IMG/VR virus record: IMGVR_UViG_3300032007_000058
Span: 21,941 to 85,940 of that record
Source of the DNA: a virus
Taxonomy: Duplodnaviria > Caudoviricetes
Strand: one strand, 5' to 3'
Length of the DNA: 64,000 bases
Shown here: one piece after another, positions 9,994-44,681 of the stretch
Layout: the number at the start of each line of letters is the position of its first letter
Numbering within the stretch: the stretch's first letter is position 1
The notes under the pieces: generated by a model
Told to the model about the DNA's origin: nothing
Seen by the model: the letters and a program-made list of their open reading frames with translations, nothing else
Databases searched by the model: none
Made by a program: the position numbers and the translations under genes

Positions 9994-10024
9994 AGGCCCG
10001 CCGGAGAGCGGGCCTTATTTTTTA
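9994..10024. terminator. terminator between the convergent accessory region and integrase
   Basis: AGGCCCGC-CGGAGA-GCGGGCCT followed by TATTTTTT; overlaps the integrase stop codon. Confidence 0.75.
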
Positions 10025-11247
10025 TCCAGCCGCTCCACCGCTCGGAGCTTGGCCTCTGGGGCCAGGTGGGCGTAGCGGAGGGTCATCTTCATATCCGCGT
10101 GCCCCAGGAGCTCACGGACGGTGTTCAGGTCCACGCCCGCCATGACCAGTCGCGACGCGAAGTCGTGGCGCATGTCGTGCCAGCGGAAATCTTCTATCCC
10201 CGCCCTCTTTATTAGCCCGTCCCAAGCGCTGCGACAGCCCCCCATCGGGCCGTCTCCCTGTGGAGAGGGGAAGACCGGGGCGTCCCCTTCCCCTTTCGTC
10301 TGGGCTCGCCACTTATCGAGCACCTCCTGGGCGGTCTTGTTGAGGGGGATCCGTATGGTCTTCCCGCTCTTCGAGGACGCCGCGCGGACGGTCAGCACTC
10401 CGTCCTGGATGTCACTCCAGCGCAGGGCCAGGAGCGAGCCGCGCCGGATGCCCGTGTTGAGGGAGAGGAGCACCATCGGCTTCAGGTGGTCGGCGAAGTC
10501 TTCCTTATCTATATGGGGGAGAGGATCCATGTGCCGCGCCTTGAGCCATTCGTTGTATCGTTCCCTGGCGGCGCGGAGCTCGGCCTCGCGCTCCTCCATC
10601 GCCTCGAATAGACGTTCCCTCTCATCGTCGGAGAGATAGCGGACGCGGCTGTCCGATTCGTCCCGTAGCGTCTCCAATCTCCCTAGTGGATAGGTATCGA
10701 TGATCTCCCGCTTGTAAGCCCAATTCAGGGCGGCTTTCAGGGCCGTGACCTTCCTATTTATAGTGGATGTCATCAACCCCCGCTTCCGGGCCGCCGTTCT
10801 CCAGGCCTCGACGTCGTGGAGAGAGAGCGTATCGAGGTCACGGTCCAACAGGGGGGCGAAGGCCGATCGGAGGAGGGCGAGCGTTTCGCCGCCGCTGCGG
10901 CGGTTCTCCAGCACCCACGGGCCATAGACGTTATCGAGGAAGGCCCCGAAGGACATCCGCTCTGGGCGCGACTCCTTCTGCCAGGGCTCCTCTCCCTTGG
11001 CGAGCGCGGTGAGGAACTCTGTCGCCGCCAGCCGGGCGTCCGGCAATGAGATTAGGTCAGCGTCCCCGATCTTATAGTGAGATGACTTTCCAGAGGCTTT
11101 CCTGTAAAATACATACCACGTCTTCTTGCCCTTCGCGCCGACGTAGAGCTGGAAGCCCCGTGTCTGGGCATCGGACCACCACGTCCCCTTGTCCCCATCG
11201 GGCTTGACGGAGAGCAGGAAGGACTGTGTGAATCGTACCTTTGGCAT
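10015..11247 (-). CDS. int: tyrosine integrase with N-terminal arm-binding domain
   Basis: Catalytic set TGIRRGS (R), WHDMRHDFAS (H-x-x-R), LLGH, RYAH (Y); N-terminal WWSD...GFQLYVGAKGKKTW arm-binding domain. Confidence 0.95.
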   Translation of the reverse strand: MPKVRFTQSFLLSVKPDGDKGTWWSDAQTRGFQLYVGAKGKKTWYVFYRKASGKSSHYKIGDADLISLPDARLAATEFLTALAKGEEPWQKESRPERMSFGAFLDNVYGPWVLENRRSGGETLALLRSAFAPLLDRDLDTLSLHDVEAWRTAARKRGLMTSTINRKVTALKAALNWAYKREIIDTYPLGRLETLRDESDSRVRYLSDDERERLFEAMEEREAELRAARERYNEWLKARHMDPLPHIDKEDFADHLKPMVLLSLNTGIRRGSLLALRWSDIQDGVLTVRAASSKSGKTIRIPLNKTAQEVLDKWRAQTKGEGDAPVFPSPQGDGPMGGCRSAWDGLIKRAGIEDFRWHDMRHDFASRLVMAGVDLNTVRELLGHADMKMTLRYAHLAPEAKLRAVERLDKK

Positions 11248-20104: not shown

Positions 20105-21238
20105 TCACGCATCTGTATCGTTATGGGGGCTCTCTTCCTCCACTACGTCGGGCTCCTTCATATCGGCTAAGGCGGCTCCCTTGTCGCTTAGGAGCCCATC
20201 TATCCGGGATAAGAGTTCATCCGCATGGGAATAGATATCATCCAAGGTCTTGATGGCTACTTTGCTCTCGCCTATCCCAAGGTACTTATTAGCCGTACTG
20301 AAGTAGAGGCGGCAAATGACTTTCATCCTGCTATTATCGAGGAGGACGTTGCAATAGGTCTGGGTCTCACGCACGGATAGCCGCGAGACGTCGAGCTTTA
20401 CGCGCAGTATCGCCTTGATGATGCTGAACGCATCGAGCTCTTCCTGAGAGGGCTCGGTCTTGACCTGTCCCTCAGCGTTCTCCTCGGGCGGCGTAGCCGC
20501 TTCTGCGGGATTCGTGGATGCCTGCTCCTCGGAGAGCGCAGAGGCCAGGCGGTCACTGACCCTATCGCTGATGAACTGCGTCAGGGCCTTCTTGGTGATG
20601 ACCTTGAATTTCTCTCGGGTATTTTCTGTCAGGCGTCCGTTGAATACCTGTGAGGCCATATGGCGCACGAAATCCTCCGACGGCTCGGCGAGCTGTTCCA
20701 TGAGGTAGAGCTTCATTGCCCCCGTGTACTTTAGCTCAGACGCGGTAGAGGTTATCTCCTCGATCGTGAATGCCGTCTTAGTGAATTTCTTTAACTCGCG
20801 TACGATCTGCTCGCTGATATTGCAGATCGAGAACTGGAGGAAAGGCTTTTGGTCCATGATATTGGCCTGGTCCAGATCGGTGTAGAAACGGTATTCATGT
20901 CCGTTCGTTAGGATCCCGATCGTCGCCGGGGTGGTATTGAAGTACCGAAGGAGCTGCCCTTCTTTGGAGACGTCGAGCGCGTCGCCGCTCCATTTCGCCT
21001 CGATGAGCATGATAGGCTTGCCATCCTTCAAAATGGCGTAGTCTACCTTTTCCCCTTTTTTCGTCCCCACATCAGCCGTGAACTCCGGGACGACTTCGGT
21101 GGGGTCAAAGACGTTGTACCCAAGGGCGCTGATGAAAGGAAGGATGAGCGCGGTCTTAGTGGCCTCTTCCGTCTGGATCATGTCCTTGCGTTCCGAATAG
21201 ACCTTTGCCAACTGCTGGATCTGCTCGATCAATTCCAT
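20105..21238 (-). CDS. HsdR_N-domain (type I restriction enzyme N-terminal PD-(D/E)XK) protein
   Basis: TEEATKTALILPFISALGY, EVVPEF..DVGTKKGEKVDYAI, MLIEAK; no helicase motifs. Confidence 0.88.
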   Translation of the reverse strand: MELIEQIQQLAKVYSERKDMIQTEEATKTALILPFISALGYNVFDPTEVVPEFTADVGTKKGEKVDYAILKDGKPIMLIEAKWSGDALDVSKEGQLLRYFNTTPATIGILTNGHEYRFYTDLDQANIMDQKPFLQFSICNISEQIVRELKKFTKTAFTIEEITSTASELKYTGAMKLYLMEQLAEPSEDFVRHMASQVFNGRLTENTREKFKVITKKALTQFISDRVSDRLASALSEEQASTNPAEAATPPEENAEGQVKTEPSQEELDAFSIIKAILRVKLDVSRLSVRETQTYCNVLLDNSRMKVICRLYFSTANKYLGIGESKVAIKTLDDIYSHADELLSRIDGLLSDKGAALADMKEPDVVEEESPHNDTDA

Positions 21239-35282: not shown

Positions 35283-36413
35283 ATGGCATGGATCGAAGCC
35301 CATCAGGGGCTTGCGCAACACCCAAAGACGAAACGCATGGCCCGGATGCTGGGCATCTCGACAGCCGAGGCTATCGGGCATCTGTTCATGCTCTGGTGGT
35401 GGGGCATGGACTACGCTCAGGATGGGGATCTGTCGAAGTACGATGAACTTGACATCGCTGACGCCGCGCAATGGACCGGTGACGCAAAGGCATTTATCGA
35501 CGCCTTGAAAAATTGCGGACCTGGGGATTCTTCGGGCTTCATCGACGAGCACGACGGGAGGGTATCCCTTCACGATTGGGACGCATACGCGGGACGCCTC
35601 TTTAACATCCGCGAGCAGAATCGGGAGAGGCAGGCGAGGCATAAAGAGCAAAAAAAGATCGAGGCCGCGCGTGAGCAACGGGATAGTGACGCGGATATAA
35701 CAGACGGGTCACGCGTTAGTAACGCGTCGGTAACGCGTGAGCAACGGGACGATAACGCACAGGTAACGCGTTATAAAAGCGTTAGTAACGCGCCGGTAAC
35801 GCGTATACATAACATAACCAACATAACAGAACAGAACAAGACAGAACAAGACCTACAAGACCTACCCCCCCCTACCCCCCCCGCCGGGGGGAGCCCCCCC
35901 GAGGGGGACTCGCAGGCGTCATCGGGAGGCCCCGAAAGCCCCCCTAGCTCCGTAGGGGGCGAGGCAGGGAACGGGCAGGGCTGCACGCTCTCGCAGGTGA
36001 TCCGGCTCTGGAACGAGGAGCTAGGGCCTCTCGGGTTCCCGAAGGTCGCGAAGGGGACGCCCGCGCGGGACAGGTGCTTCAGCGCGCGCGTCGGGGAACA
36101 GGCAGAGCGGAGAGACCTGGAGTGGTGGCGGGAGCGTATCGCCCAGCTCGCCGCGTCGGACTTCATGCGCTCATCGGCCAGAGATAAGGCCAACTGGCTC
36201 AACTTCGACTGGCTGCTGAACGAGAGCAACCTCGTGAAGGTCGTCGAAGGGCGCTACGCGAACGGTAAGAGCCTGCCCGCTAGGAGCGGGGGGGCAAGGT
36301 CTTCGCCGCCAAGCGCCCGGGATGCCCCGATGACCTACGAGGAGGCCGTCGCAAAGTTCCGAGGTAGCAGTACCGCTGTGGACGTGGAATATATCGACGT
36401 CGAGGAGGGATGA
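35283..36413 (+). CDS. phage replication initiator (replisome organiser)
   Basis: MAWIEAH...HPKT...GHLFMLWWW N-domain; internal iteron repeats; C-terminal NFDWLL..SNLVKVVEGRY. Confidence 0.85.
   Translation: MAWIEAHQGLAQHPKTKRMARMLGISTAEAIGHLFMLWWWGMDYAQDGDLSKYDELDIADAAQWTGDAKAFIDALKNCGPGDSSGFIDEHDGRVSLHDWDAYAGRLFNIREQNRERQARHKEQKKIEAAREQRDSDADITDGSRVSNASVTREQRDDNAQVTRYKSVSNAPVTRIHNITNITEQNKTEQDLQDLPPPTPPAGGSPPEGDSQASSGGPESPPSSVGGEAGNGQGCTLSQVIRLWNEELGPLGFPKVAKGTPARDRCFSARVGEQAERRDLEWWRERIAQLAASDFMRSSARDKANWLNFDWLLNESNLVKVVEGRYANGKSLPARSGGARSSPPSARDAPMTYEEAVAKFRGSSTAVDVEYIDVEEG
35713..35860. other. probable replication origin (iterons inside the initiator gene)
   Basis: GTAACGCG at 35719, 35730, 35763, 35785 and 35796, followed by an A/C-rich low-complexity tract. 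Confidence 0.7.
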
Positions 36414-37066
36414 CCATGCGGAAGGACGAATTCAACGCATTTCGAGAGCTCATGTCCCGAGCGGCGGATATCACCGTCATGCCCAACGGGAAGGACCTGG
36501 AGCGCGTCACGCTGGCGCTGTTCGAGGGGCTGGAATCGTATCCGTTCGTGGACGTGGCCGAGGCCGTGGCGGCCTATTGCCGGTCTGAGCGATTCTTCCC
36601 GATGCTGGCGGATATCGTGGAGCGCATCGAGGGCAAGGGCAGTGACAAGGGGCTCCTAGCTTGGAGCATGGTCCTGAAGGCCGTGGCCCGCTATGGGCAC
36701 TGGGAGTCCGTGCGCTTCCCGGACCCGACGATCCACTGGGCCGTGGCGCACATGGGGGGATGGCGGCACTTATCGCCCCGCATCACGGACGATAACGAGC
36801 GTTTCCTGGCGCAGGACTTCGCTCGCTGGTACGCCATAGGCGAGCGGGCGATATCGGCGGGCGAGGAGCCCCCAGCCTACCTCGTGGGCGAACACGAGGC
36901 GGACAACAGGGCACGGGGCTACGCCATGCGTGGGATCCGTGACGTGGAGACAGGGCGTATCCTGCCAAGCGGGGAGGCTCCAGCTCTGGGGGCGTCCACG
37001 GCGCAAGCCAAGCCATTGATCCAGCTCGTAGCTGGCGGGATGGACGCCCGAGAGGCCGTGCGATGA
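36410..37066 (+). CDS. helicase loader-like protein resembling DUF6475
   Basis: FFPMLADI, AW..VLKAV..YG...SV.F.DP.IH..V..MGGW; directly after the initiator. Confidence 0.75.
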   Translation: MTMRKDEFNAFRELMSRAADITVMPNGKDLERVTLALFEGLESYPFVDVAEAVAAYCRSERFFPMLADIVERIEGKGSDKGLLAWSMVLKAVARYGHWESVRFPDPTIHWAVAHMGGWRHLSPRITDDNERFLAQDFARWYAIGERAISAGEEPPAYLVGEHEADNRARGYAMRGIRDVETGRILPSGEAPALGASTAQAKPLIQLVAGGMDAREAVR

Positions 37067-37440
37067 AGACGCTATTGAGCGTCACTCTGGCCGGGCTGCC
37101 CCCGACGGTCAATCACCTGTACCGGACATCGCCTCGGGGCTTCCGGTACAAGACCAAGGCTGGGAAGGTCTGGCAGGAGGACACGGCCCTGATACTCCGG
37201 ACGGCGTGGGGGGGCAAGCCGCCGCTGGGCAAGGAGGACGGCATCTTCGTGCAGGTCTTGTTCATGATGGGCAACGAGCGGGCCTGGGATATGGACAACC
37301 GGATCAAGGCCCTACAGGACTGCCTCCAGATGGCGGGCATCGTCCGTGACGACCGGGAGATAGACCACCTCTGGGTCGACCGGGAGAGGGGACTGGCGAC
37401 CGACGCCACCAAGGTCTCTGTGGGGACGGTGGCTGGCTGA
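37063..37440 (+). CDS. rusA: RusA-family Holliday junction resolvase
   Basis: PPTVNHLY, DMDNRIKALQDCL, GIVRDDREI. Confidence 0.9.
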   Translation: MKTLLSVTLAGLPPTVNHLYRTSPRGFRYKTKAGKVWQEDTALILRTAWGGKPPLGKEDGIFVQVLFMMGNERAWDMDNRIKALQDCLQMAGIVRDDREIDHLWVDRERGLATDATKVSVGTVAG

Positions 37441-37454
37441 TGGGGGGCGAAGGT

Positions 37455-37964
37455 ATGTCCGAGCATGACCTGGTTCTGGCCGAAGATACGCGGGCGTCCT
37501 CTACGCCCATCAAGGACCGTCCCTACTGGCCCTTCCGCTTCGCGGAGCGGTGTCTGTACGAGTTCCACGAGAATGCCGCCAGGCTGGATATCCTGCGTGA
37601 GGACCTAAAGGTCCTGGATTCGACGACCTCCGCAGCGGTCCCGAAATATGACCCGCTCTCGATACACGGCGGGGGACCGTCGGATAACGTCTCGGCCCGG
37701 CTGGAGCGCATCGAGAAGCTGGAGGAGGATATCAAGCGGCTGGATCGGCGCGTCAGCCCCATCCAGAGGCTCATCGATGACCTGGGGGCTCCCTACGTCC
37801 TGGACGATTCCCCGAAGGCCGAGATGTTCAAGATCTTGGAGCTATATTACTTCGGCAATAACGTCTGGACCACCGTAGCCAGGGAGCTCCACATGGCGAA
37901 GCGCACGTTCTTCCGGAAGCGCGAGGATCTGGTCCGGTTAGCCATCCGCTACATGGGGCTCTGA
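37455..37964 (+). CDS. ArpU/RinA-like late transcriptional activator
   Basis: Coiled N-terminus and C-terminal LELYYF..NVWTTVARELHMAKRTFFRKR HTH; last gene before the late operon. Confidence 0.75.
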   Translation: MSEHDLVLAEDTRASSTPIKDRPYWPFRFAERCLYEFHENAARLDILREDLKVLDSTTSAAVPKYDPLSIHGGGPSDNVSARLERIEKLEEDIKRLDRRVSPIQRLIDDLGAPYVLDDSPKAEMFKILELYYFGNNVWTTVARELHMAKRTFFRKREDLVRLAIRYMGL

Positions 37965-37970
37965 TCCATG

Positions 37971-38035
37971 TGGCACTAATTTGGCACTGGCGTGGCACTG
38001 GCGTGGCACTGATATCCGTTTTCCTGTGGTATCAT
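37971..38035 (+). promoter_or_regulatory. late promoter: four phased TGGCACT repeats plus an extended -10
   Basis: TGGCACT at 37971, 37982, 37993 and 38004 (exact 11-bp period); TG-G-TATCAT 38027-38035; no consensus -35. Confidence 0.75.
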
Positions 38036-38140
38036 CATAGCGTCGAATAGCGCGAGAAAGACATCTCTCATGATCTCCTCGATGGGGGCGTCCTGTATAC
38101 GGACGCCCTTTATCTTTATGCGCGGAAAGGGAAAGACATC

Positions 38141-38758
38141 ATGCCGAACGACAATATCAGCATCGCAGGGACGGTCAAGGTCCTGCCCGTAAAGGACCTG
38201 AAGGGGTACGAGAAGAATCCCCGCAAGAACGATAACGCGGTGGAGGCCGTAGCGAACAGCATCAGGGAGTTCGGTTTCAAGGTCCCTGTCATCGTCGACA
38301 AGGACAACGTGATCGTCGCCGGACATACGCGCATAAAGGCCGCCAAGCAGCTTGGCCTGACGGAGGTCCCCGTCATCGTCGCCGATGACCTGACGCCGGA
38401 ACAAGTCAAGGCCTTCCGCCTAGCCGATAACAAGGTCGCCGGGCTCGCGGGCTGGGATTGGGACATGCTCGCAGCCGAGATGGACGCTATCACCGATATC
38501 GACATGGGGCTCTTCTCGTTCGACGCCATCCCCACGAGCGAGGAGATCGAGTCCTTCTTCGAGCCTATCCCCTCCTCGCAGGACGGGGAAGGGACGCCTG
38601 CCCCCAACACAGCGCCAGGGGAGCCGGACGCTCCAAGGGGAGAGGCCCCGGCGCGTCAGGTCGAACGGGTCTCGTCCGTGGATAGCGGGGAAGCGTCGTA
38701 TCTCAGGATCACTTGCCCGCACTGCGGGGAGACGATCGTGCTGAACGACGGCGCATGA
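38141..38758 (+). CDS. ParB/Srx-like N-terminal domain protein with a C-terminal CPHCG zinc knuckle
   Basis: YEKNPRKND, SIREFGF..PVIVD, IVAGHTR..AA..LG..EVPV, RLADNK. Confidence 0.9.
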   Translation: MPNDNISIAGTVKVLPVKDLKGYEKNPRKNDNAVEAVANSIREFGFKVPVIVDKDNVIVAGHTRIKAAKQLGLTEVPVIVADDLTPEQVKAFRLADNKVAGLAGWDWDMLAAEMDAITDIDMGLFSFDAIPTSEEIESFFEPIPSSQDGEGTPAPNTAPGEPDAPRGEAPARQVERVSSVDSGEASYLRITCPHCGETIVLNDGA

Positions 38759-39606
38759 AGATCTATCTCGTTGGCGGGCATGGCAACATCGAGCGTATCG
38801 AGCCCCCGGTCTCGCCACAGGACCTAAAACGCCTCAACTGCCTTGTGAGCATGATCGCCTTCAGGCGCTTCAGGTACGCCCCGCATGAGTTCAAGAGCTT
38901 CATGCTCGATAGCGGGGCTTTCTCGTTCCTGCGTGGCGCCTCGGATGCGCCGGACTGGGACAAGTACCTCGACCGATACATCGCCTGCATCAACGAGAAC
39001 GCTATCGACCTGTTCTTCGAGCTGGATATCGACCCCCTCGTCGGGTACGAGAAAGTCAAGGAGTTTAGGGCACGCCTGGTGCGAGAGACGGGTAAATTTC
39101 CCATCCCCGTATGGCATAAGTCCAGGGGGAGGGACGAATGGCTCCGCATGTGCAGCGAGTATCCCTACGTCGCCATCGGGGGCTTCGCCATAAAGGTCTT
39201 CAAGCCGTCGGAATTCCGCTTCATCCCCTACCTCCTCGACGAGGCGCATAAGCGCGGGGCGAAGGTCCATGGGCTCGGGTTCACTTGGCTGCGGCTGCTC
39301 GACAAGTACCCCTTCGATAGCGTCGACTCCAACAGTTGGACGGCTGGGAGCATGTACGGGAATATCTACAAGTTCCACAACGGGCAGATGAAGCTCTTGG
39401 GGCGCTCTAATCGGGACGGCAGGGGCAGAGGTAAGGGGCACGAGCTGCACCGCAATAATTTCTACGAGTGGCTGAGATACGCCGAGTACATGGAGGCAAA
39501 ATACAGCGATGAGAAAGATCGTCCACAGGGTCGAGGACGGTATGGACAGGCAGGATATCCTCTGCACGACGTACCAGATGCGCAATTTCTACACGCAGTT
39601 CCATGA
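38755..39606 (+). CDS. TGT-fold DpdA-like 7-deazaguanine transglycosylase (putative DNA-acting)
   Basis: FMLDSGAFSF, FELDID, IPVWH, YVAIGG, VHGLG, FDSVDSNSW: TGT/DpdA-type motif order; no CxCxxC zinc site of the tRNA-acting TGT; next to a YhhQ gene. Confidence 0.75.
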   Translation: MKIYLVGGHGNIERIEPPVSPQDLKRLNCLVSMIAFRRFRYAPHEFKSFMLDSGAFSFLRGASDAPDWDKYLDRYIACINENAIDLFFELDIDPLVGYEKVKEFRARLVRETGKFPIPVWHKSRGRDEWLRMCSEYPYVAIGGFAIKVFKPSEFRFIPYLLDEAHKRGAKVHGLGFTWLRLLDKYPFDSVDSNSWTAGSMYGNIYKFHNGQMKLLGRSNRDGRGRGKGHELHRNNFYEWLRYAEYMEAKYSDEKDRPQGRGRYGQAGYPLHDVPDAQFLHAVP

Positions 39607-40327
39607 CGGCTTCTTCAGCAACCTCGACGTCATGAACTACATCCAGCACTACCGGGCGGCGCAGATGGCGAAGAAGGGCGATAACGTCGTGGACGTCTGC
39701 TGTGGGCGCTCGCTGATGCTCCCGCTCCTCCGCTACCACGCGAAGGACATCGCCAGCTATACGGGCGTCGATATCTCGAAGGCGAATATCGGCGAGGCGA
39801 TGCGGGGCTGTGTCAAGAAGGACCTGAAGCCCCAGGACCTCGCATCCTACTACCCCTTCAAGGTCGCCTGGAAGCTAGGGAACGTTGCGGAGATGAGCAA
39901 GGTCATCCCTGAAGGGTCCGCCGACCTCGTGATCTATACATCGGCGATCGAGCATATGCACCCGGATGACGGGCGCAAGAGCCTGGAGGAATGCGCGAAG
40001 ATCATGAAGCCTGGGGCGACGATGATCCTGTCCTGTCCCAATACCCCTGGCAATGGCTACGACGCGCAATATCGAGCCCACGTCTACGAGTGGGGATACG
40101 ACGAGCTCAAGGTGGCGCTTGAGGAGATCGGGCTCAGGGTAGAGCAGGAGGTCGGCCTCGTGCTTGGAGCTAAGGAGATGGACGAGCTCTATGCCGCCCA
40201 GCCCGAGGACGTGAGGCAGTTCTACGCGAGGATGAAGGGATACCTGCCCATGCCCTGGCTGTCGGTAGTGATGGCGGTCCCATTCCCCAAAGCGTCCAAG
40301 GAGCTCTTATTCATCGTGAGGAGGTAA
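39509..40327 (+). CDS. class I SAM-dependent methyltransferase (small-molecule type)
   Basis: VVDVCCG motif I, YTGVDIS, ADLVIYTSAIEH, MKPGATMILSCPN; no DPPY/NPPF or PC motif. Confidence 0.85.
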   Translation: MRKIVHRVEDGMDRQDILCTTYQMRNFYTQFHDGFFSNLDVMNYIQHYRAAQMAKKGDNVVDVCCGRSLMLPLLRYHAKDIASYTGVDISKANIGEAMRGCVKKDLKPQDLASYYPFKVAWKLGNVAEMSKVIPEGSADLVIYTSAIEHMHPDDGRKSLEECAKIMKPGATMILSCPNTPGNGYDAQYRAHVYEWGYDELKVALEEIGLRVEQEVGLVLGAKEMDELYAAQPEDVRQFYARMKGYLPMPWLSVVMAVPFPKASKELLFIVRR

Positions 40328-40337
40328 CGCGCCCCTG

Positions 40338-41024
40338 GTGGGCAAAGGAAACATGAGCAAGACAGATAACAACTTAGCGATATTGACGGTCCTGTTCGTC
40401 GTGAGCCTCGTCATCTCGAACGTGGTCACGGCGAAGCTGTTTTATACCGGTGTCCCCCTGTGGGGGGAGGTGGTGGTCCTGCCAGGGGCCGTCGTCTGCT
40501 ACGCGCTGACGTTCCTGTGCACTGATATCATTGGCGAGATCTGGGGCAAGGCAGCGGCGAGCCGTGCGGTAGTCTACGGCTTCATCGGCCAGGTAGCGGC
40601 GTCCCTGATGATCCTGTTCACCCAGATGCTCCCCACCGTCAGCCCAGAGCTCCAGGCGGCCTATGACACCCTCCTGGGGCAGAACCACATCTTCGTCTTC
40701 GGCTCGCTGGTCGCCTACTTCGCGTCGCAGCTCTGGGACGTGTATATCTTCCACGCCATACGCGAACGGTGGCTGTCGAGGCGTGGGACCACATCGGCGC
40801 GGTGGATCTGGAACAACGTAAGCACGATGACCAGCCAGCTCATCGACACGGTCCTCTTCGCGGGCATCTCGTTCGGCATCGGCTTCGGCTGGCTGTTCGA
40901 TCCGCATATGCGAGGGGCGCTCCTCTCGATGATGGCCGGGCAGTACGTCTTTAAATTCCTGCTGGCGGCGCTGGATACGCCGTTCTTCATGTTCTTCACC
41001 AGGGGCACAGAGGCGCTATCGTAG
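40338..41024 (+). CDS. yhhQ: YhhQ/VUT-family queuosine-precursor (preQ0/preQ1) transporter
   Basis: SNVVTAK, YALTFLCTDIIGEIWG, GSLVAYFASQLWDV, NNVST..SQLIDT, KFLLAALDTPF; multi-TM. Confidence 0.92.
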   Translation: MGKGNMSKTDNNLAILTVLFVVSLVISNVVTAKLFYTGVPLWGEVVVLPGAVVCYALTFLCTDIIGEIWGKAAASRAVVYGFIGQVAASLMILFTQMLPTVSPELQAAYDTLLGQNHIFVFGSLVAYFASQLWDVYIFHAIRERWLSRRGTTSARWIWNNVSTMTSQLIDTVLFAGISFGIGFGWLFDPHMRGALLSMMAGQYVFKFLLAALDTPFFMFFTRGTEALS

Positions 41025-41089
41025 CGTGCCCAGGGCAGTACTAGGGGGGCCGGTAGGTAGAGCTTGAGTGGGGAGCGAGGTGAGAGGAT

Positions 41090-41542
41090 ATGGCGAAGAG
41101 GGGACGGCCTAGGAAAGAGTTCGATCGAAAGCTATTCGAGTCGCTCTGTGGGCTCCAGTGTACGCTCGATGAAATAGCCTCGGTATTCAGTTGCGATAAC
41201 AAGACTGTGGAACAATGGTGTAAACGTGAGTACGGCAAGAATTTCTCCGAGATTTTTAGGGAAAAGAGGAATATCGGCAAAATATCGCTCAGGCGGGCAC
41301 AATGGAGATTGGCGGAGAAGTCCCCTGCTATGGCTATCTTCCTCGGCAAGAACTTCCTGGGGCAGACCGATAAGCAGGACGTAGAGGTCTCTGGCCCTAA
41401 TAACGCCCCAGTCGTCATGAAGCACCAATACGACCTGAGCGGGCTCTCCATGGGCGAGATAATGACTCTGGAGGCGATCCTGTCTAAAGTAGAGAGCAAT
41501 AAGGCGGGGGGCGTCAAGGATGGACCTACCCAGCCTGAGTGA
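41090..41542 (+). CDS. terS: terminase small subunit
   Basis: GRPRK, HTH, GKISLRRAQW, AIFLGKNFLGQ; precedes terL. Confidence 0.85.
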   Translation: MAKRGRPRKEFDRKLFESLCGLQCTLDEIASVFSCDNKTVEQWCKREYGKNFSEIFREKRNIGKISLRRAQWRLAEKSPAMAIFLGKNFLGQTDKQDVEVSGPNNAPVVMKHQYDLSGLSMGEIMTLEAILSKVESNKAGGVKDGPTQPE

Positions 41543-42971
41543 GGTACGAGCCTGGAAGCGGGAGCTGGCCTGCAAAGATTATGGAGCTTACGTCGAGCTG
41601 GTCCATCGCGGGCGCTGGAGACGGGCAAGACATCTCGACCTGTTATGCAGCCTCCTTAGATCCGTCGAGGATGGGACAATTCCGCGACTTATGGTCTCGA
41701 TGCCTCCGCGCCATGGCAAGTCTATGGCGGTGACAGAGACCTTCCCGAGCTGGTTCTTGGGGAAGCAGCCGGACCGTCGCGTCATCGAAGTTAGCTATGG
41801 CGATAAATTCGCTCAGAAATTCGGGCGCGCCAATCGCCGTAAGATCGACGAATTTGGGATGGAGCTCTTTGGCGTTTCCATATCCAGCGATAACGCCTCA
41901 GTGACGAACTGGGGGATCAAGGGGCGTGCTGGGGGTATGATATCAGCCGGGGTCGGTGGGGGCATCACCGGGGAGGGGGCGGACCTGCTTATCATCGACG
42001 ACCCCATCAAGAACCGCAAGGAGGCGGAGTCCCTGACCTACCGCGAGACCTTATGGGCGGAATGGCAAGACACTTTGATGTCGCGCCTCCACCCAGGTGG
42101 GCGGGTCGTGATCATCATGACCCGTTGGCACGAGGACGACCTCGTGGGACGGCTCTTGGCACAGAACGCGACGCATGGGTGGCGAGTGGTCAACCTCCCC
42201 GCCCTGGCGGACGAGAGGGAGCCAGATATCCTGGGACGGAGGCCTGGCGAAGCGCTCTGGCCGGAGCATGGGTTCGATGAGACATGGGCCGAGGAGATGA
42301 AGGGAAGGGTCGGGACCCGTACTTGGGAGAGCCTTTACCAAGGCCATCCTACGCCACAGGATGGCGGGCTCTTCCGCACATCCACGTTCCGGCGCTTCCG
42401 TGCGGCGGGGACGTGCTACCGGCTTCTCACGCCCGAGGGCGAGAGGATCTACGACCATTCCCAGTGCCGCGTGTTCCAGACCTGCGATGTGGCGGGGAGC
42501 AGGAAGAGTAGTGCGGACTATTTCGTCCTTGGGACCTTTGCCCTGACGCCAGGCGGCGATATCCTCGTGCTAGAGATACTGCGGGAGCGGCTGGAGGGGC
42601 CGGACCAGCCCATCCTGATACGCCGCAAGTTCCAGGAGTGGAAGCCAGCCATGATCGGGATCGAATCGGCGAATATGGGACTGACGCTCTATCAGCAGGT
42701 CGTCCGCGATGGCCTGCCGGTGATCGGATTACGCCCAGATACGGACAAGTACACACGGGCTATCCCTGCTGCGGCGCGGTACGAGGCTGGGGCGATCTAT
42801 CACAGGGAGAATGCCCCGTGGGCGAACGACCTGGAGGCGGAGCTCATCGCCTTCCCCAACGGGGCTCATGACGACCAGGTGGATGTCATCGCCTATGCCG
42901 CGTTCATCCAGGCCTGGGGATATCTCGACGCGATGGAGAAAAAGAGCGACCGCGCTTTTGTCTTAGGATAG
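41520..42971 (+). CDS. terL: terminase large subunit
   Basis: MPPRHGKS Walker A, LIIDDPIK Walker B, CDVA, HDDQVD nuclease motifs. Confidence 0.95.
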   Translation: MDLPSLSEVRAWKRELACKDYGAYVELVHRGRWRRARHLDLLCSLLRSVEDGTIPRLMVSMPPRHGKSMAVTETFPSWFLGKQPDRRVIEVSYGDKFAQKFGRANRRKIDEFGMELFGVSISSDNASVTNWGIKGRAGGMISAGVGGGITGEGADLLIIDDPIKNRKEAESLTYRETLWAEWQDTLMSRLHPGGRVVIIMTRWHEDDLVGRLLAQNATHGWRVVNLPALADEREPDILGRRPGEALWPEHGFDETWAEEMKGRVGTRTWESLYQGHPTPQDGGLFRTSTFRRFRAAGTCYRLLTPEGERIYDHSQCRVFQTCDVAGSRKSSADYFVLGTFALTPGGDILVLEILRERLEGPDQPILIRRKFQEWKPAMIGIESANMGLTLYQQVVRDGLPVIGLRPDTDKYTRAIPAAARYEAGAIYHRENAPWANDLEAELIAFPNGAHDDQVDVIAYAAFIQAWGYLDAMEKKSDRAFVLG

Positions 42972-42992
42972 GTCTGGATAGGAGAGATAAAG

Positions 42993-44681
42993 ATGGGCGA
43001 CGAGTTGAACTTCCCCGGCGGGCGGGCCTTCGTGGTGAAGGCGGGGGATGGCAAAGCCCCTGTCAGCATGAAGATGGAGCAGGACCCCTTTGCCGCATAC
43101 TATGGCGATGGGATACTTGAGCCCCCCTACGATCTGGGCTATCTGGCGCGTCTGCCTGAATGCTCCAATATCCTCTCTCAGTGTGTCGAGGCGATGGAAG
43201 TGAATATCGACGGTTTTGGGTTCGGGCTGGATCCTATCGGCGGGGCTGATCCGGAAGGTGACGGAGTACCGATCGAAGCCGCCGAGGCAGAGCGCAAGGC
43301 CATCCTGCACTTCTTCGAGTTTTGTAATCCCGACATGCCCTACTCGCAGCTCCGCCGCAGGGTGAGGCGCGACCTAGAGACCTTGGGCAACGGCTATTGG
43401 GAGATCATACGGGACGGCAAGGGCGATATCGCCTGGATCGAACATATCGAAGGGCATACCATGCGCCTGACCCGCCTCGACGATGAGTATACGCCCGTCA
43501 CCCTCCTCATTAGAGACGACGAGAGCAATGAGCTGCGTCCTTATGAACACCGCAAGCGCTTCCGGCGCTTCGTCCAGATACGGGATGGGCTGAAGGTCTA
43601 TTTCAAGGAGTTCGGAGACCCGCGTCTCATCGACGCGCGGACGGGGCGCTTACGCGGCGAGGAGGAAGTGGGGGAGTTCACGCCCGCAACGGAGGTCATC
43701 CACTTCCGGTTCTACTCGCCCAGTTCCCCTTATGGCGTCCCCCGATGGATCGGGAACCTTCTGGCGGTCCTGGGCTCGCGTCAAGCCGAAGAGGTCAATT
43801 ATGAGTACTTCGAGAACAACACCATCCCCCCCCTGGCGCTGCTCGTTGCCGGGACGCTTGGGGAGAAAACGGTCGAGAGGATAGAGGATTTCATACATGA
43901 CCACATGCGGGGGCGTCAGAGCTTCAACAAGATGCTGGTCATCGAGGCTTCCCCCGCTGGGACCATCGTGCCCGGAATGACGGCTGCACCCAAGACGTCG
44001 ATCCAGTTCCAGCACCTCAGTGACGCGCAGCAGAAGGACAGCCTCTTTGACAATTACGACCGGACGAACAGGGAGAAGATACGCTCCTCCTTCCGGCTCC
44101 CGCCGATCTTCGTCGGCTTGACCAGCGACTACACGCGGGCGACGGCGCGGGAATCCCGCGAGGTAGCAGAGGAGCAGGTCTTCGCCCCAGAACGCGGAGA
44201 CCACGATTTTATCATCAACCGTGTGCTATTCCCGGCGATGGGGGTGCGGTACTGGAAGTATCGCAGCCTTGCCCCTACGTCGAACGACTCGGAGATCATG
44301 GCGGGCGTACTGGACTCCTTCTGCCGCTGTGGGATGACGGTCCGCGAGGCACGGGACGAGATATCCCGTCTGCTCAACAGGCCATTAACGACGCCCGAGG
44401 GGGAGGAGCCGGAATGGCTGGACCTGCCCATGTCCATCTACCTCGCTCAGCTCCAGCACGGAGGGGGAGAGGGCGAGCCGGGGCCGCAGGGCGAGCTGAT
44501 CCAGAAGGGGGCTCCCGACAGGGAAGCGCTTTTTTTGCGGGCTTTGACCGGGATCGAGAAGGCATTGGAGGAGGAGCACGAGCATGGCGACGATACTGAC
44601 GAGCCTGACCCCAGCGGCACGGCGAGAGGCCTGGCTGAGGCTCGACCATATCCTCCACATGCTGCCCATAGCGAAGGCTAA
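42993..44681 (+). CDS. portal protein (PBSX-like)
   Basis: GNGYWEIIRD, FKEFGD, EVIHF, YGVPRW, FRLPPIFVG. Confidence 0.9.
   Translation: MGDELNFPGGRAFVVKAGDGKAPVSMKMEQDPFAAYYGDGILEPPYDLGYLARLPECSNILSQCVEAMEVNIDGFGFGLDPIGGADPEGDGVPIEAAEAERKAILHFFEFCNPDMPYSQLRRRVRRDLETLGNGYWEIIRDGKGDIAWIEHIEGHTMRLTRLDDEYTPVTLLIRDDESNELRPYEHRKRFRRFVQIRDGLKVYFKEFGDPRLIDARTGRLRGEEEVGEFTPATEVIHFRFYSPSSPYGVPRWIGNLLAVLGSRQAEEVNYEYFENNTIPPLALLVAGTLGEKTVERIEDFIHDHMRGRQSFNKMLVIEASPAGTIVPGMTAAPKTSIQFQHLSDAQQKDSLFDNYDRTNREKIRSSFRLPPIFVGLTSDYTRATARESREVAEEQVFAPERGDHDFIINRVLFPAMGVRYWKYRSLAPTSNDSEIMAGVLDSFCRCGMTVREARDEISRLLNRPLTTPEGEEPEWLDLPMSIYLAQLQHGGGEGEPGPQGELIQKGAPDREALFLRALTGIEKALEEEHEHGDDTDEPDPSGTARGLAEARPYPPHAAHSEG

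Follow-up and report, generated by a model that had tools for sequence, protein, structure and literature searches.

A probable salvage-type 7-deazaguanine DNA-modification cassette with a DpdA-linked methyltransferase in a cattle-gut phage

The stretch of DNA analysed here, called the window throughout, spans 64,000 nucleotides and is part of an 85,940-base IMG/VR record of a tailed phage (IMGVR_UViG_3300032007_000058), for which CheckV estimates a completeness of 72%. Positions 38141-41024 hold four linked genes that probably constitute a salvage-type 7-deazaguanine DNA-modification cassette of a phage from the cattle gut. An earlier inspection, made from the letters and their open reading frames (the sequence-only reading), had located four plus-strand genes here, and both gene calls and profile matches confirm them. 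In order, they are:

38141..38758, plus strand: ParB/Srx-fold protein of 205 residues (ParB_N, 9.8e-10; phrog_620, 1.8e-55)
38755..39606, plus strand: DpdA-family transglycosylase of 283 residues, predicted to act on guanine in DNA, core at about residues 1-255 (phrog_887, 3.4e-44; no Pfam match)
39509..40327, plus strand: class I S-adenosylmethionine (SAM) methyltransferase (MT) of 272 residues (Methyltransf_23, 1.9e-13; also Methyltransf_11, Methyltransf_25, Methyltransf_31 and Methyltransf_12)
40338..41024, plus strand: queuosine-precursor importer of the Vut_1/YhhQ type (COG1738), 228 residues (PF02592, 2.4e-41; TIGR00697 equivalog, 5.4e-35)

The real start of dpdA is the ATG at 38755, which overlaps the stop codon of the preceding ParB-like gene as ATGA. 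At the other end of the gene, the N terminus of the MT is conserved from its first methionine in all homologues, and the MT open reading frame thus overlaps the last 98 nucleotides of dpdA. The DpdA tail encoded by these nucleotides is modeled with a predicted local distance difference test score (pLDDT) below 50, the AlphaFold2 model of DpdA having a pLDDT of 84. Alignment of this model with bacterial, human and archaeal tRNA-guanine transglycosylases (TGTs) gives VIA-align Z scores of 15.3-15.7 over 242-247 residues, consistent with a TGT-type (β/α)8 barrel, and the bacterial DpdA 7ui4 is among its Foldseek matches. Searching the PDB with the protein, whether by sequence or by profile, returned nothing at E ≤ 1, and TGT (PF01702) matches neither DpdA nor anything else in the whole 85,940-base record.

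Relatives of this enzyme are abundant in phages. A tblastn search recovered 216 phage records, including phage 9g DpdA (4e-8), phiFN37 (1e-29) and the Bacillus phage BCD7 (6e-20), and 3,822 cluster-level relatives were found at E < 1e-5, none of which has a Pfam domain on record. The window DpdA and that of 9g are 28% identical over 69% of the query. Four residues, Asp 52 (in LDSGAF), His 121, His 172 and Asp 191 (in DS..W), are invariant across 31 homologues and 9g DpdA, and Trp 195 is likewise invariant across the family and in 9g. From motif order and spacing, we infer that Asp 52 and Asp 191 are the counterparts of Asp 95 (acid/base) and Asp 256 (nucleophile) in the DpdA of Salmonella Montevideo. 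The protein is basic (isoelectric point (pI) about 9) and lacks the CxCxxC zinc site, containing just three scattered cysteines. The homology to 9g, the invariant aspartates and the missing zinc site bear out the earlier view that this TGT-like protein is a DpdA relative and not a tRNA TGT; it is a DpdA-family enzyme, for which activity on DNA is predicted.

PHROG and GenBank annotators label such genes ‘queuine tRNA-ribosyltransferase’, and YhhQ and QueT are both transporters of the kind used by hosts to salvage queuosine, so that the cassette might be read as an auxiliary metabolic module for tRNA or host queuosine salvage, with a TGT-like enzyme acting on tRNA. We consider this extremely unlikely. 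The enzyme is a minimal TIM barrel that, besides the zinc site, lacks any extra RNA-binding domain, and its homologue in 9g belongs to a phage shown to carry deoxyarchaeosine (dG+) in its DNA. It is also coupled to a ParB-fold protein, relatives have as a neighbor DUF6884, a reported domain of the DNA-acting DpdC, and the hosts of related prophages already own a full-length TGT.

The importer matches its family models well above their cut-offs (PF02592, 142 bits against 27.2; TIGR00697, 121 bits against 50.95), whereas its score for the E. coli-type model PRK11212 is no more than 30 bits (cut-off 252). Hydrophobic segments show up in a crude scan of the protein. Judged from family membership, its cargo could be preQ0, preQ1, 7-carboxy-7-deazaguanine (CDG) or queuine. 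An Rfam scan of positions 36000-43000 found no preQ1 riboswitch before the importer and returned two matches only (E 0.37 and 0.93), far below gathering scores. The sequence-only reading had remarked that no biosynthesis gene occurs in the window, and this holds over the whole 85,940-base record, in which no QueC, QueD, QueE, FolE, DUF6884 or QueF-like gene was found.

That the importer serves DpdA is best supported by 80 viral loci retrieved with a DpdA alignment (no relatives came up in viral contigs when the query was the single DpdA protein). In these, the slot between dpdA and the terminase genes is filled by interchangeable sets: YhhQ alone; DUF6884 with YhhQ; a small protein called X113 with YhhQ; QueC, with or without X113, followed by YhhQ; queC-queD-queE-folE, as in the fecal phage MT835752; or sets that contain the MT. 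The importer in the commonest MT architecture is QueT, a transporter unrelated to YhhQ. Since YhhQ, the unrelated QueT and preQ0 biosynthesis genes replace one another in a single slot, the window importer would appear to supply the base for DpdA, and the proposal that the phage salvages its precursor gains support from the same comparison.

DUF6884 lies between dpdA and yhhQ in several phages (L002:5736-6170, L006:6903-7313, L008, L029 and L032), including the cultured phiFN37. It has been reported as the domain of DpdC, an enzyme that converts preQ0-DNA to DNA containing 7-amido-7-deazaguanine (ADG) (PMC10164549), and many such phages thus have a phage-borne counterpart of dpdA/dpdC together with a ParB-fold protein. 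By analogy, modules with both DUF6884 and yhhQ are predicted to make the deoxynucleoside of ADG (dADG) from salvaged preQ0.

X113, which is absent from the window, is an acidic T-fold, QueF-L-like protein of about 100 residues with invariant Cys, Glu and His (L005:6740-7081, L057:2782-3087 and L178:4731-5141). It is nearest to the archaeosine synthase QueF-L (5jyx, E 0.008), with the catalytic cysteine conserved, and matches the QueF-II model TIGR03139 at 7.5e-5, but by reading of the alignment lacks the NADPH-binding motif of true QueF. It was seen solely alongside an importer, either after QueC, after the MT or alone. It may convert the nitrile of salvaged preQ0. Other small genes also occur in some modules: a 108-residue phosphoribosyltransferase-domain protein between queC and queD, and a YgjV-like membrane protein of 70-77 residues between dpdA and yhhQ (L014:6262-6588, L026:5625-5837 and L062:1196-1429).

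The third gene of the cassette sets it apart from these modules, as the MT belongs to an undescribed family on which a literature search found no paper. It has a conserved, glycine-rich motif I (VVDVCCGRS) of the Rossmann-like class I type, and its Foldseek matches are of the small-molecule type, with RebM at E 7e-13 and also MitM, NNMT, BioC and a cap guanine-N7 enzyme. The listed fold matches include no DNA methyltransferase, and a regular-expression search for motif IV of such enzymes, (D/N/S)PP(Y/F/W) or PC(Q), was empty, in agreement with the earlier observation that the protein lacks their catalytic motifs. Neither the CxxxCxxCC cysteine motif nor DUF3109 is present, the Pfam matches being confined to the five families given above, and a look-up in the ESM Atlas yielded only generic class I methyltransferase clusters, mostly viral.

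The family is large and closely tied to DpdA. It comprises 749 clusters at E < 1e-5, some with hundreds to thousands of member sequences; the 120 clusters listed are 66-82% identical to the window protein, and identity among most members is 61-82%. Some 90 further loci of phages and prophages have the MT next to DpdA-type enzymes. Co-conservation of the two, chosen beforehand as a test by which the sequence-only reading could be refuted, is seen when the MT serves as query: of the 80 viral loci retrieved, at least 76 have DpdA immediately upstream and the rest have no DpdA match. The arrangement ParB-DpdA-MT-X113-QueT accounts for 51 of the 80; others are ParB-DpdA-MT-X113-YhhQ, ParB-DpdA-MT-QueT, DpdA-MT-queD-queE-folE and the ParB-DpdA-MT-YhhQ of the window. 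The linkage survives rearrangement, as in locus L165, where a 46%-identical MT lies in the permuted order queD-E-folE-MT-dpdA-parB, and it extends down to 35% identity, with MT homologues of 35-46% beside DpdA in three loci that include contigs of metagenome-assembled genomes (MAGs) labelled Bathyarchaeia and Pseudomonadota. On the 3.5-kb Bathyarchaeia-labelled contig (L183:162-3223), two tandem DpdA homologues are followed by the MT (46% identity) and a ParB_N protein.

If the specificities of the two enzymes had evolved together, MT-linked DpdAs would be expected to form one clade. They are instead spread over at least five lineages of the DpdA tree, which needs about seven changes, indicating that the MT moves between DpdA lineages as a mobile add-on. 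The window DpdA itself falls on a long branch that the tree does not resolve. Locus L175 holds the closest relative of the window DpdA-MT pair (DpdA 76% and MT 82% identical). A precise swap of the importer for folE/queD/queE in a conserved backbone was considered for these two and rejected, because only the ParB end, DpdA and the MT are common to both and the downstream genes are unrelated. More distant MT homologues, 27-34% identical, lie beside thymidylate-kinase-like genes in Stenotrophomonas phage AXL3 (L172, 4854-5678) and in a Ktedonobacteria locus (L185, 3953-4756); the AXL3 homologue is also near thymidylate-synthase-like, dCMP deaminase and hydrolase genes. These clusters may belong to another nucleotide or DNA hypermodification pathway.

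A complete genome of Faecalibacterium prausnitzii contains an MT-bearing prophage, as do MAGs of Faecalibacterium and Gemmiger. In F. prausnitzii strain 2 (NZ_CP186691.1) the cassette, with the order ParB-DpdA-MT-X113-QueT, lies near 2.349-2.358 Mb. All four Faecalibacterium/Gemmiger genomes with such prophages encode a full TGT (about 1e-156). No QueF was found in them, and QueC gave marginal matches only, of 21-24 bits, in proteins of 376-643 residues. The suggestion that the module works in hosts unable to make the precursor therefore agrees with these genomes, which are those of hosts of relatives and not of the window phage.

The gene partners of the MT bear on what it methylates. The combination MT-queD-queE-folE without queC occurs in at least 15 loci and in five of five complete genomes, and queC is absent from all ten MT-phage genomes that are at least 91% complete. 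Two phages with flanks that are 84-96% identical in nucleotide sequence differ by a [DpdA+QueC] versus a [DpdA+MT] unit, and L175 has queD-queE-folE, again with no queC, where the window has YhhQ. Because MT phages carry folE, queD and queE but almost never queC, and their known hosts lack QueC, we slightly favor a CDG-derived substrate over preQ1, with methylation of the carboxyl group to give a methyl ester. The CDG would be either imported or made by folE/queD/queE; in hosts of the main clade, which have neither QueC nor QueF, CDG so made could not proceed to preQ0. A product of the CDG ester type is a tentative assignment that we hold to be somewhat doubtful when taken singly. That the MT makes an undescribed DNA base of some kind, for example CDG methyl ester or a methylated amide or amidine made with the QueF-L-like protein, is possible, at a little short of even likelihood.

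A different product would be mdPreQ1, which arises if the MT N-methylates preQ1, free or in DNA, as a non-homologous replacement of the DUF3109 enzyme DpdM, with the importer bringing in preQ1 or preQ0. This base is known from phage DNA, where a dedicated methylase makes it (PMC10516641). In most loci the MT is followed by the QueF-like X113 and an importer, which could mean a route from preQ0 to preQ1 to mPreQ1, and hosts that have TGT but lack QueC and QueF must use imported preQ1-type bases, so that preQ1 may be on offer. However, X113 is closest to QueF-L and without the NADPH motif may not make preQ1, and the folE-queD-queE loci and complete genomes described above lack a QueF-like gene as well as queC. 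Phages of that type need both QueC and QueF from the host to arrive at preQ1, and neither is present in the known hosts of the family. We therefore regard mdPreQ1 as rather unlikely. The sequence-only reading had named ‘a methyl-preQ1-type or new base’; the link between the methyltransferase gene and DpdA stands, whereas methyl-preQ1 is no better supported than a CDG-derived product.

The MT could also act on DNA, for instance at N7 of the target guanine to labilize it for exchange by DpdA, or to place an independent second mark. It pairs with at least five DpdA lineages and with every mode of supply, and is more conserved than DpdA; this constancy fits a constant substrate such as DNA guanine. 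Several members have weak Pfam matches to the mRNA cap guanine-N7 methyltransferase, and 2hv9 is among the Foldseek matches. Even so, action on DNA is quite improbable, given that motif IV of the DNA methyltransferases is missing, that pI values in the family span 5.6 to 9.4 and are not consistently basic, that the top fold matches are natural-product methyltransferases, and that most DpdA modules function without an MT. The probability that remains after CDG ester, mdPreQ1 and DNA guanine falls to methylation of another atom or to an enzyme with no deazaguanine link.

The ParB-like protein has a GxxRxxA nucleotide-binding motif (Gly 61, Arg 64 and Ala 67), an acidic linker and a C-terminal CPHCG tail; the motif and the tail are conserved in 24 homologues located upstream of dpdA. 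The same protein lies directly upstream of DpdA in nearly all complete loci and in about 70 of the 80 overall, and these homologues align end to end at 35-55% identity. The matches of the window protein are confined to ParB_N and parB-type models, and it shows neither of the features of DpdB orthology that were sought, the DndB/DGQ(Q/H)R-type domain and the C-terminal SspE-like helical domain. With GHTR in place of DGQQR and a length of just 205 residues, it is thus not a DpdB orthologue. By analogy, we propose that it is a DpdB analogue that would act as the nucleoside triphosphatase partner of DpdA. The accessory role assigned to it earlier is in keeping with its co-conservation with DpdA, the retained motif and the parallel to DpdB.

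Alternatively, this gene could encode a ParB-type nuclease of the packaging or late module that stands beside the terminase genes and is near dpdA by position only. Genes of this kind are frequent near phage terminases and also form N-terminal domains of phage DNA methyltransferases (phrog_498 and phrog_940), and the characterized phage 9g has no ParB gene beside dpdA. Such an explanation is improbable, as it does not account for a full-length orthologue upstream of DpdA in so many loci, for the ATGA overlap with dpdA in the window, or for the ParB-like gene staying beside dpdA in the permuted L165 and in the L183 contig.

Taken as a whole, the comparative genomics supports the interpretation first put forward from the sequence, the most likely function of the four genes being to take up a queuosine-precursor base and to build it into the DNA of the phage itself by base exchange. 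In the proposed mechanism, the Vut_1/YhhQ permease would import a 7-deazaguanine base (preQ0, preQ1 or CDG) into the infected cell. The DpdA-family enzyme would then exchange guanines in phage DNA for this base by a TGT-type double displacement, with Asp 52 as the putative acid/base and Asp 191 as the putative nucleophile. The co-translated ParB-fold protein would be a nucleotide-dependent partner of DpdA on DNA, as DpdB is for bacterial DpdA, and the class I MT would methylate the deazaguanine, while it is still a free base or once it has been inserted, to give a methylated derivative. The likely benefit is that phage DNA would be shielded from restriction in hosts unable to make preQ0.

Several observations weigh against this reading. 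The MT fold matches generic small-molecule methyltransferases and gives no hint of a substrate, homologues of 27-34% identity occur in other nucleotide-metabolism clusters without DpdA, and GenBank cultured phages contain no close homologue, the best being 28% identical. The MAG labelled Izemoplasmatales (L182) has the MT together with queC-queD-queE-folE, which rules out a strict mutual exclusion of MT and QueC, and X113, the companion of the MT in most loci, is an awkward fit for the CDG and the preQ1 models alike. With a pI of 4.5 the ParB-like protein is acidic, it falls far short of DpdB in size, and ParB-like genes are common near phage terminase genes in general. Finally, because the record is 72% complete, a que gene could lie elsewhere in the phage.

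The cassette is placed between a regulator gene and terS/terL, where it opens the block of packaging and structural genes. The surrounding features are:

37440..37964, plus strand: regulator gene, upstream neighbor of the cassette and possible late activator (phrog_36 ‘transcriptional regulator’, 8.1e-15; no Pfam match)
37971..38010, plus strand: four exact direct TGGCACT repeats with an 11-nucleotide period, read from the sequence in the 176-nucleotide gap before the ParB-like gene
38084..38119, plus strand: GC-rich hairpin and T-rich run, 22 nucleotides before the ParB start (scan for terminator-like sites)
41090..42971, plus strand: terS (41090-41542) and terL (41520-42971) (phrog_309, 3.1e-10; Terminase_6N, 5.5e-18; phrog_38, 2.1e-105)

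Of the earlier description of this region, the position ahead of terS/terL held. The ‘late promoter’ is putative at most; the upstream gap contains the TGGCACT repeats and the hairpin with its T-run. The repeats are possibly a binding array for the regulator or activator, or a promoter element of the late operon. The hairpin looks, weakly, like a terminator or anti-termination site; terminator-like sites in the region are no more numerous than in shuffled sequences. It is solely the position of the genes that points to modification at packaging time.

The record is phage throughout and has tail genes at both ends, hence no host flank. Because it starts with baseplate/tail genes that continue the end of the window, it resembles a circularly permuted temperate-phage genome and not a prophage with host flanks. 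Genes for a tyrosine integrase and for a protein bearing an HsdR_N-type domain lie in the early region (window positions 10015-11247 and 20105-21238, both on the minus strand). Beyond the window, the record encodes an SNF2-type helicase followed by a 3'-phosphoadenosine-5'-phosphosulfate (PAPS)-reductase/DUF3440 protein (L173:16422-19042; compare L002:1-1491); phiFN37 likewise has a PAPS reductase, which adjoins a ParB-like gene, and this looks like a recurring phage pair. Among the sequencing runs that hold the record no RNA run is listed, and the only full holder is a bovine gut metagenome sample, which is probably its source.

Phage 7-deazaguanine DNA modifications are anti-restriction devices. 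To our knowledge, every characterized system makes its own precursor or relies on preQ0 from the host, and we know of no hypermodifying methylase other than DpdM. The cassette belongs to a very large group of modules from gut and rumen phages that has hardly been studied, as the thousands of DpdA relatives and the many MT clusters indicate. These differ from characterized systems in their small ParB-fold partner, in having importers that replace biosynthesis genes, and in an MT beside DpdA in nearly every close member examined. The new element is the DpdA-linked MT family, deazaguanine modification itself being already known. Should the MT make a new base, this would extend the known natural DNA modifications and add an enzyme for DNA labelling; phages would also be shown to compete for the pool of queuosine precursors in the gut. 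Many phages and prophages of Faecalibacterium and related gut bacteria would then carry a base derived from scavenged precursors, in hosts unable to make preQ0. As the complete genome of an isolate of F. prausnitzii, a key human commensal, carries such a prophage, the question is directly testable.

The best-known counterparts are the DpdA1 clusters of Queuovirinae such as the Enterobacteria phages 9g and CAjan, which produce dG+ and dPreQ0 (PMC6884629, PMC7544227). The window shares with them a homologous DpdA, with DSGAF and DS..W invariant, and the presumed purpose, replacement of guanine in DNA by a 7-deazaguanine. CAjan also encodes YhhQ, although there it is dispensable. In contrast to the window, these phages synthesize their own preQ0 (folE, queD, queE and queC or Gat-QueC) and have neither an adjacent ParB gene nor a class I methyltransferase.

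Bacterial DpdA, as in Salmonella Montevideo, requires the ParB-superfamily ATPase DpdB, and the Gly/Arg nucleotide-binding motif of ParB has been described as analogous to DGQQR of DpdB (PMC10164549). The DpdA/DpdB/DpdC system and the cassette thus both combine a transglycosylase with a nucleotide-binding partner of the ParB superfamily, and phage modules related to the cassette also have DUF6884 and YhhQ. The window differs in its short, ParB_N-only partner with GHTR, in having an MT where relatives have DpdC, in lacking the restriction genes dpdD-K and in its late-operon context in a phage.

DpdM, the dPreQ1 methyltransferase, is a DUF3109 metalloprotein with a CxxxCxxCC motif (PMC10516641). 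It and the window MT would both be methyltransferases dedicated to a DpdA pathway and leading to a methylated deazaguanine in DNA. As one is a DUF3109 metalloprotein and the other a SAM-dependent enzyme of the class I Rossmann fold, the two are unrelated; in addition, the gene partners of the window MT point at least equally to CDG as to preQ1.

Phages that lack queC and whose pathway ends at CDG include Campylobacter phage CP220 (dADG) and Cellulophaga phage phiST (2'-deoxy-7-deazaguanosine, dDG), which use DpdA3 (PMC10516641). Like the MT-queD-queE-folE relatives, they have folE-queD-queE without queC beside DpdA. They differ in DpdA3 and in DpdL or other enzymes, and neither a class I methyltransferase nor a ParB partner is reported for any of them; the window, for its part, has an importer in place of folE/queD/queE. 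Closest in layout are Fusobacterium phage phiFN37 (OR492271) and other cultured or deposited phages, annotated but unstudied, which have ParB-DpdA-DUF6884-YhhQ, the same backbone in the same order. The phiFN37 DpdA is 33% identical to that of the window, and DUF6884 occupies the slot that the MT takes in the window.

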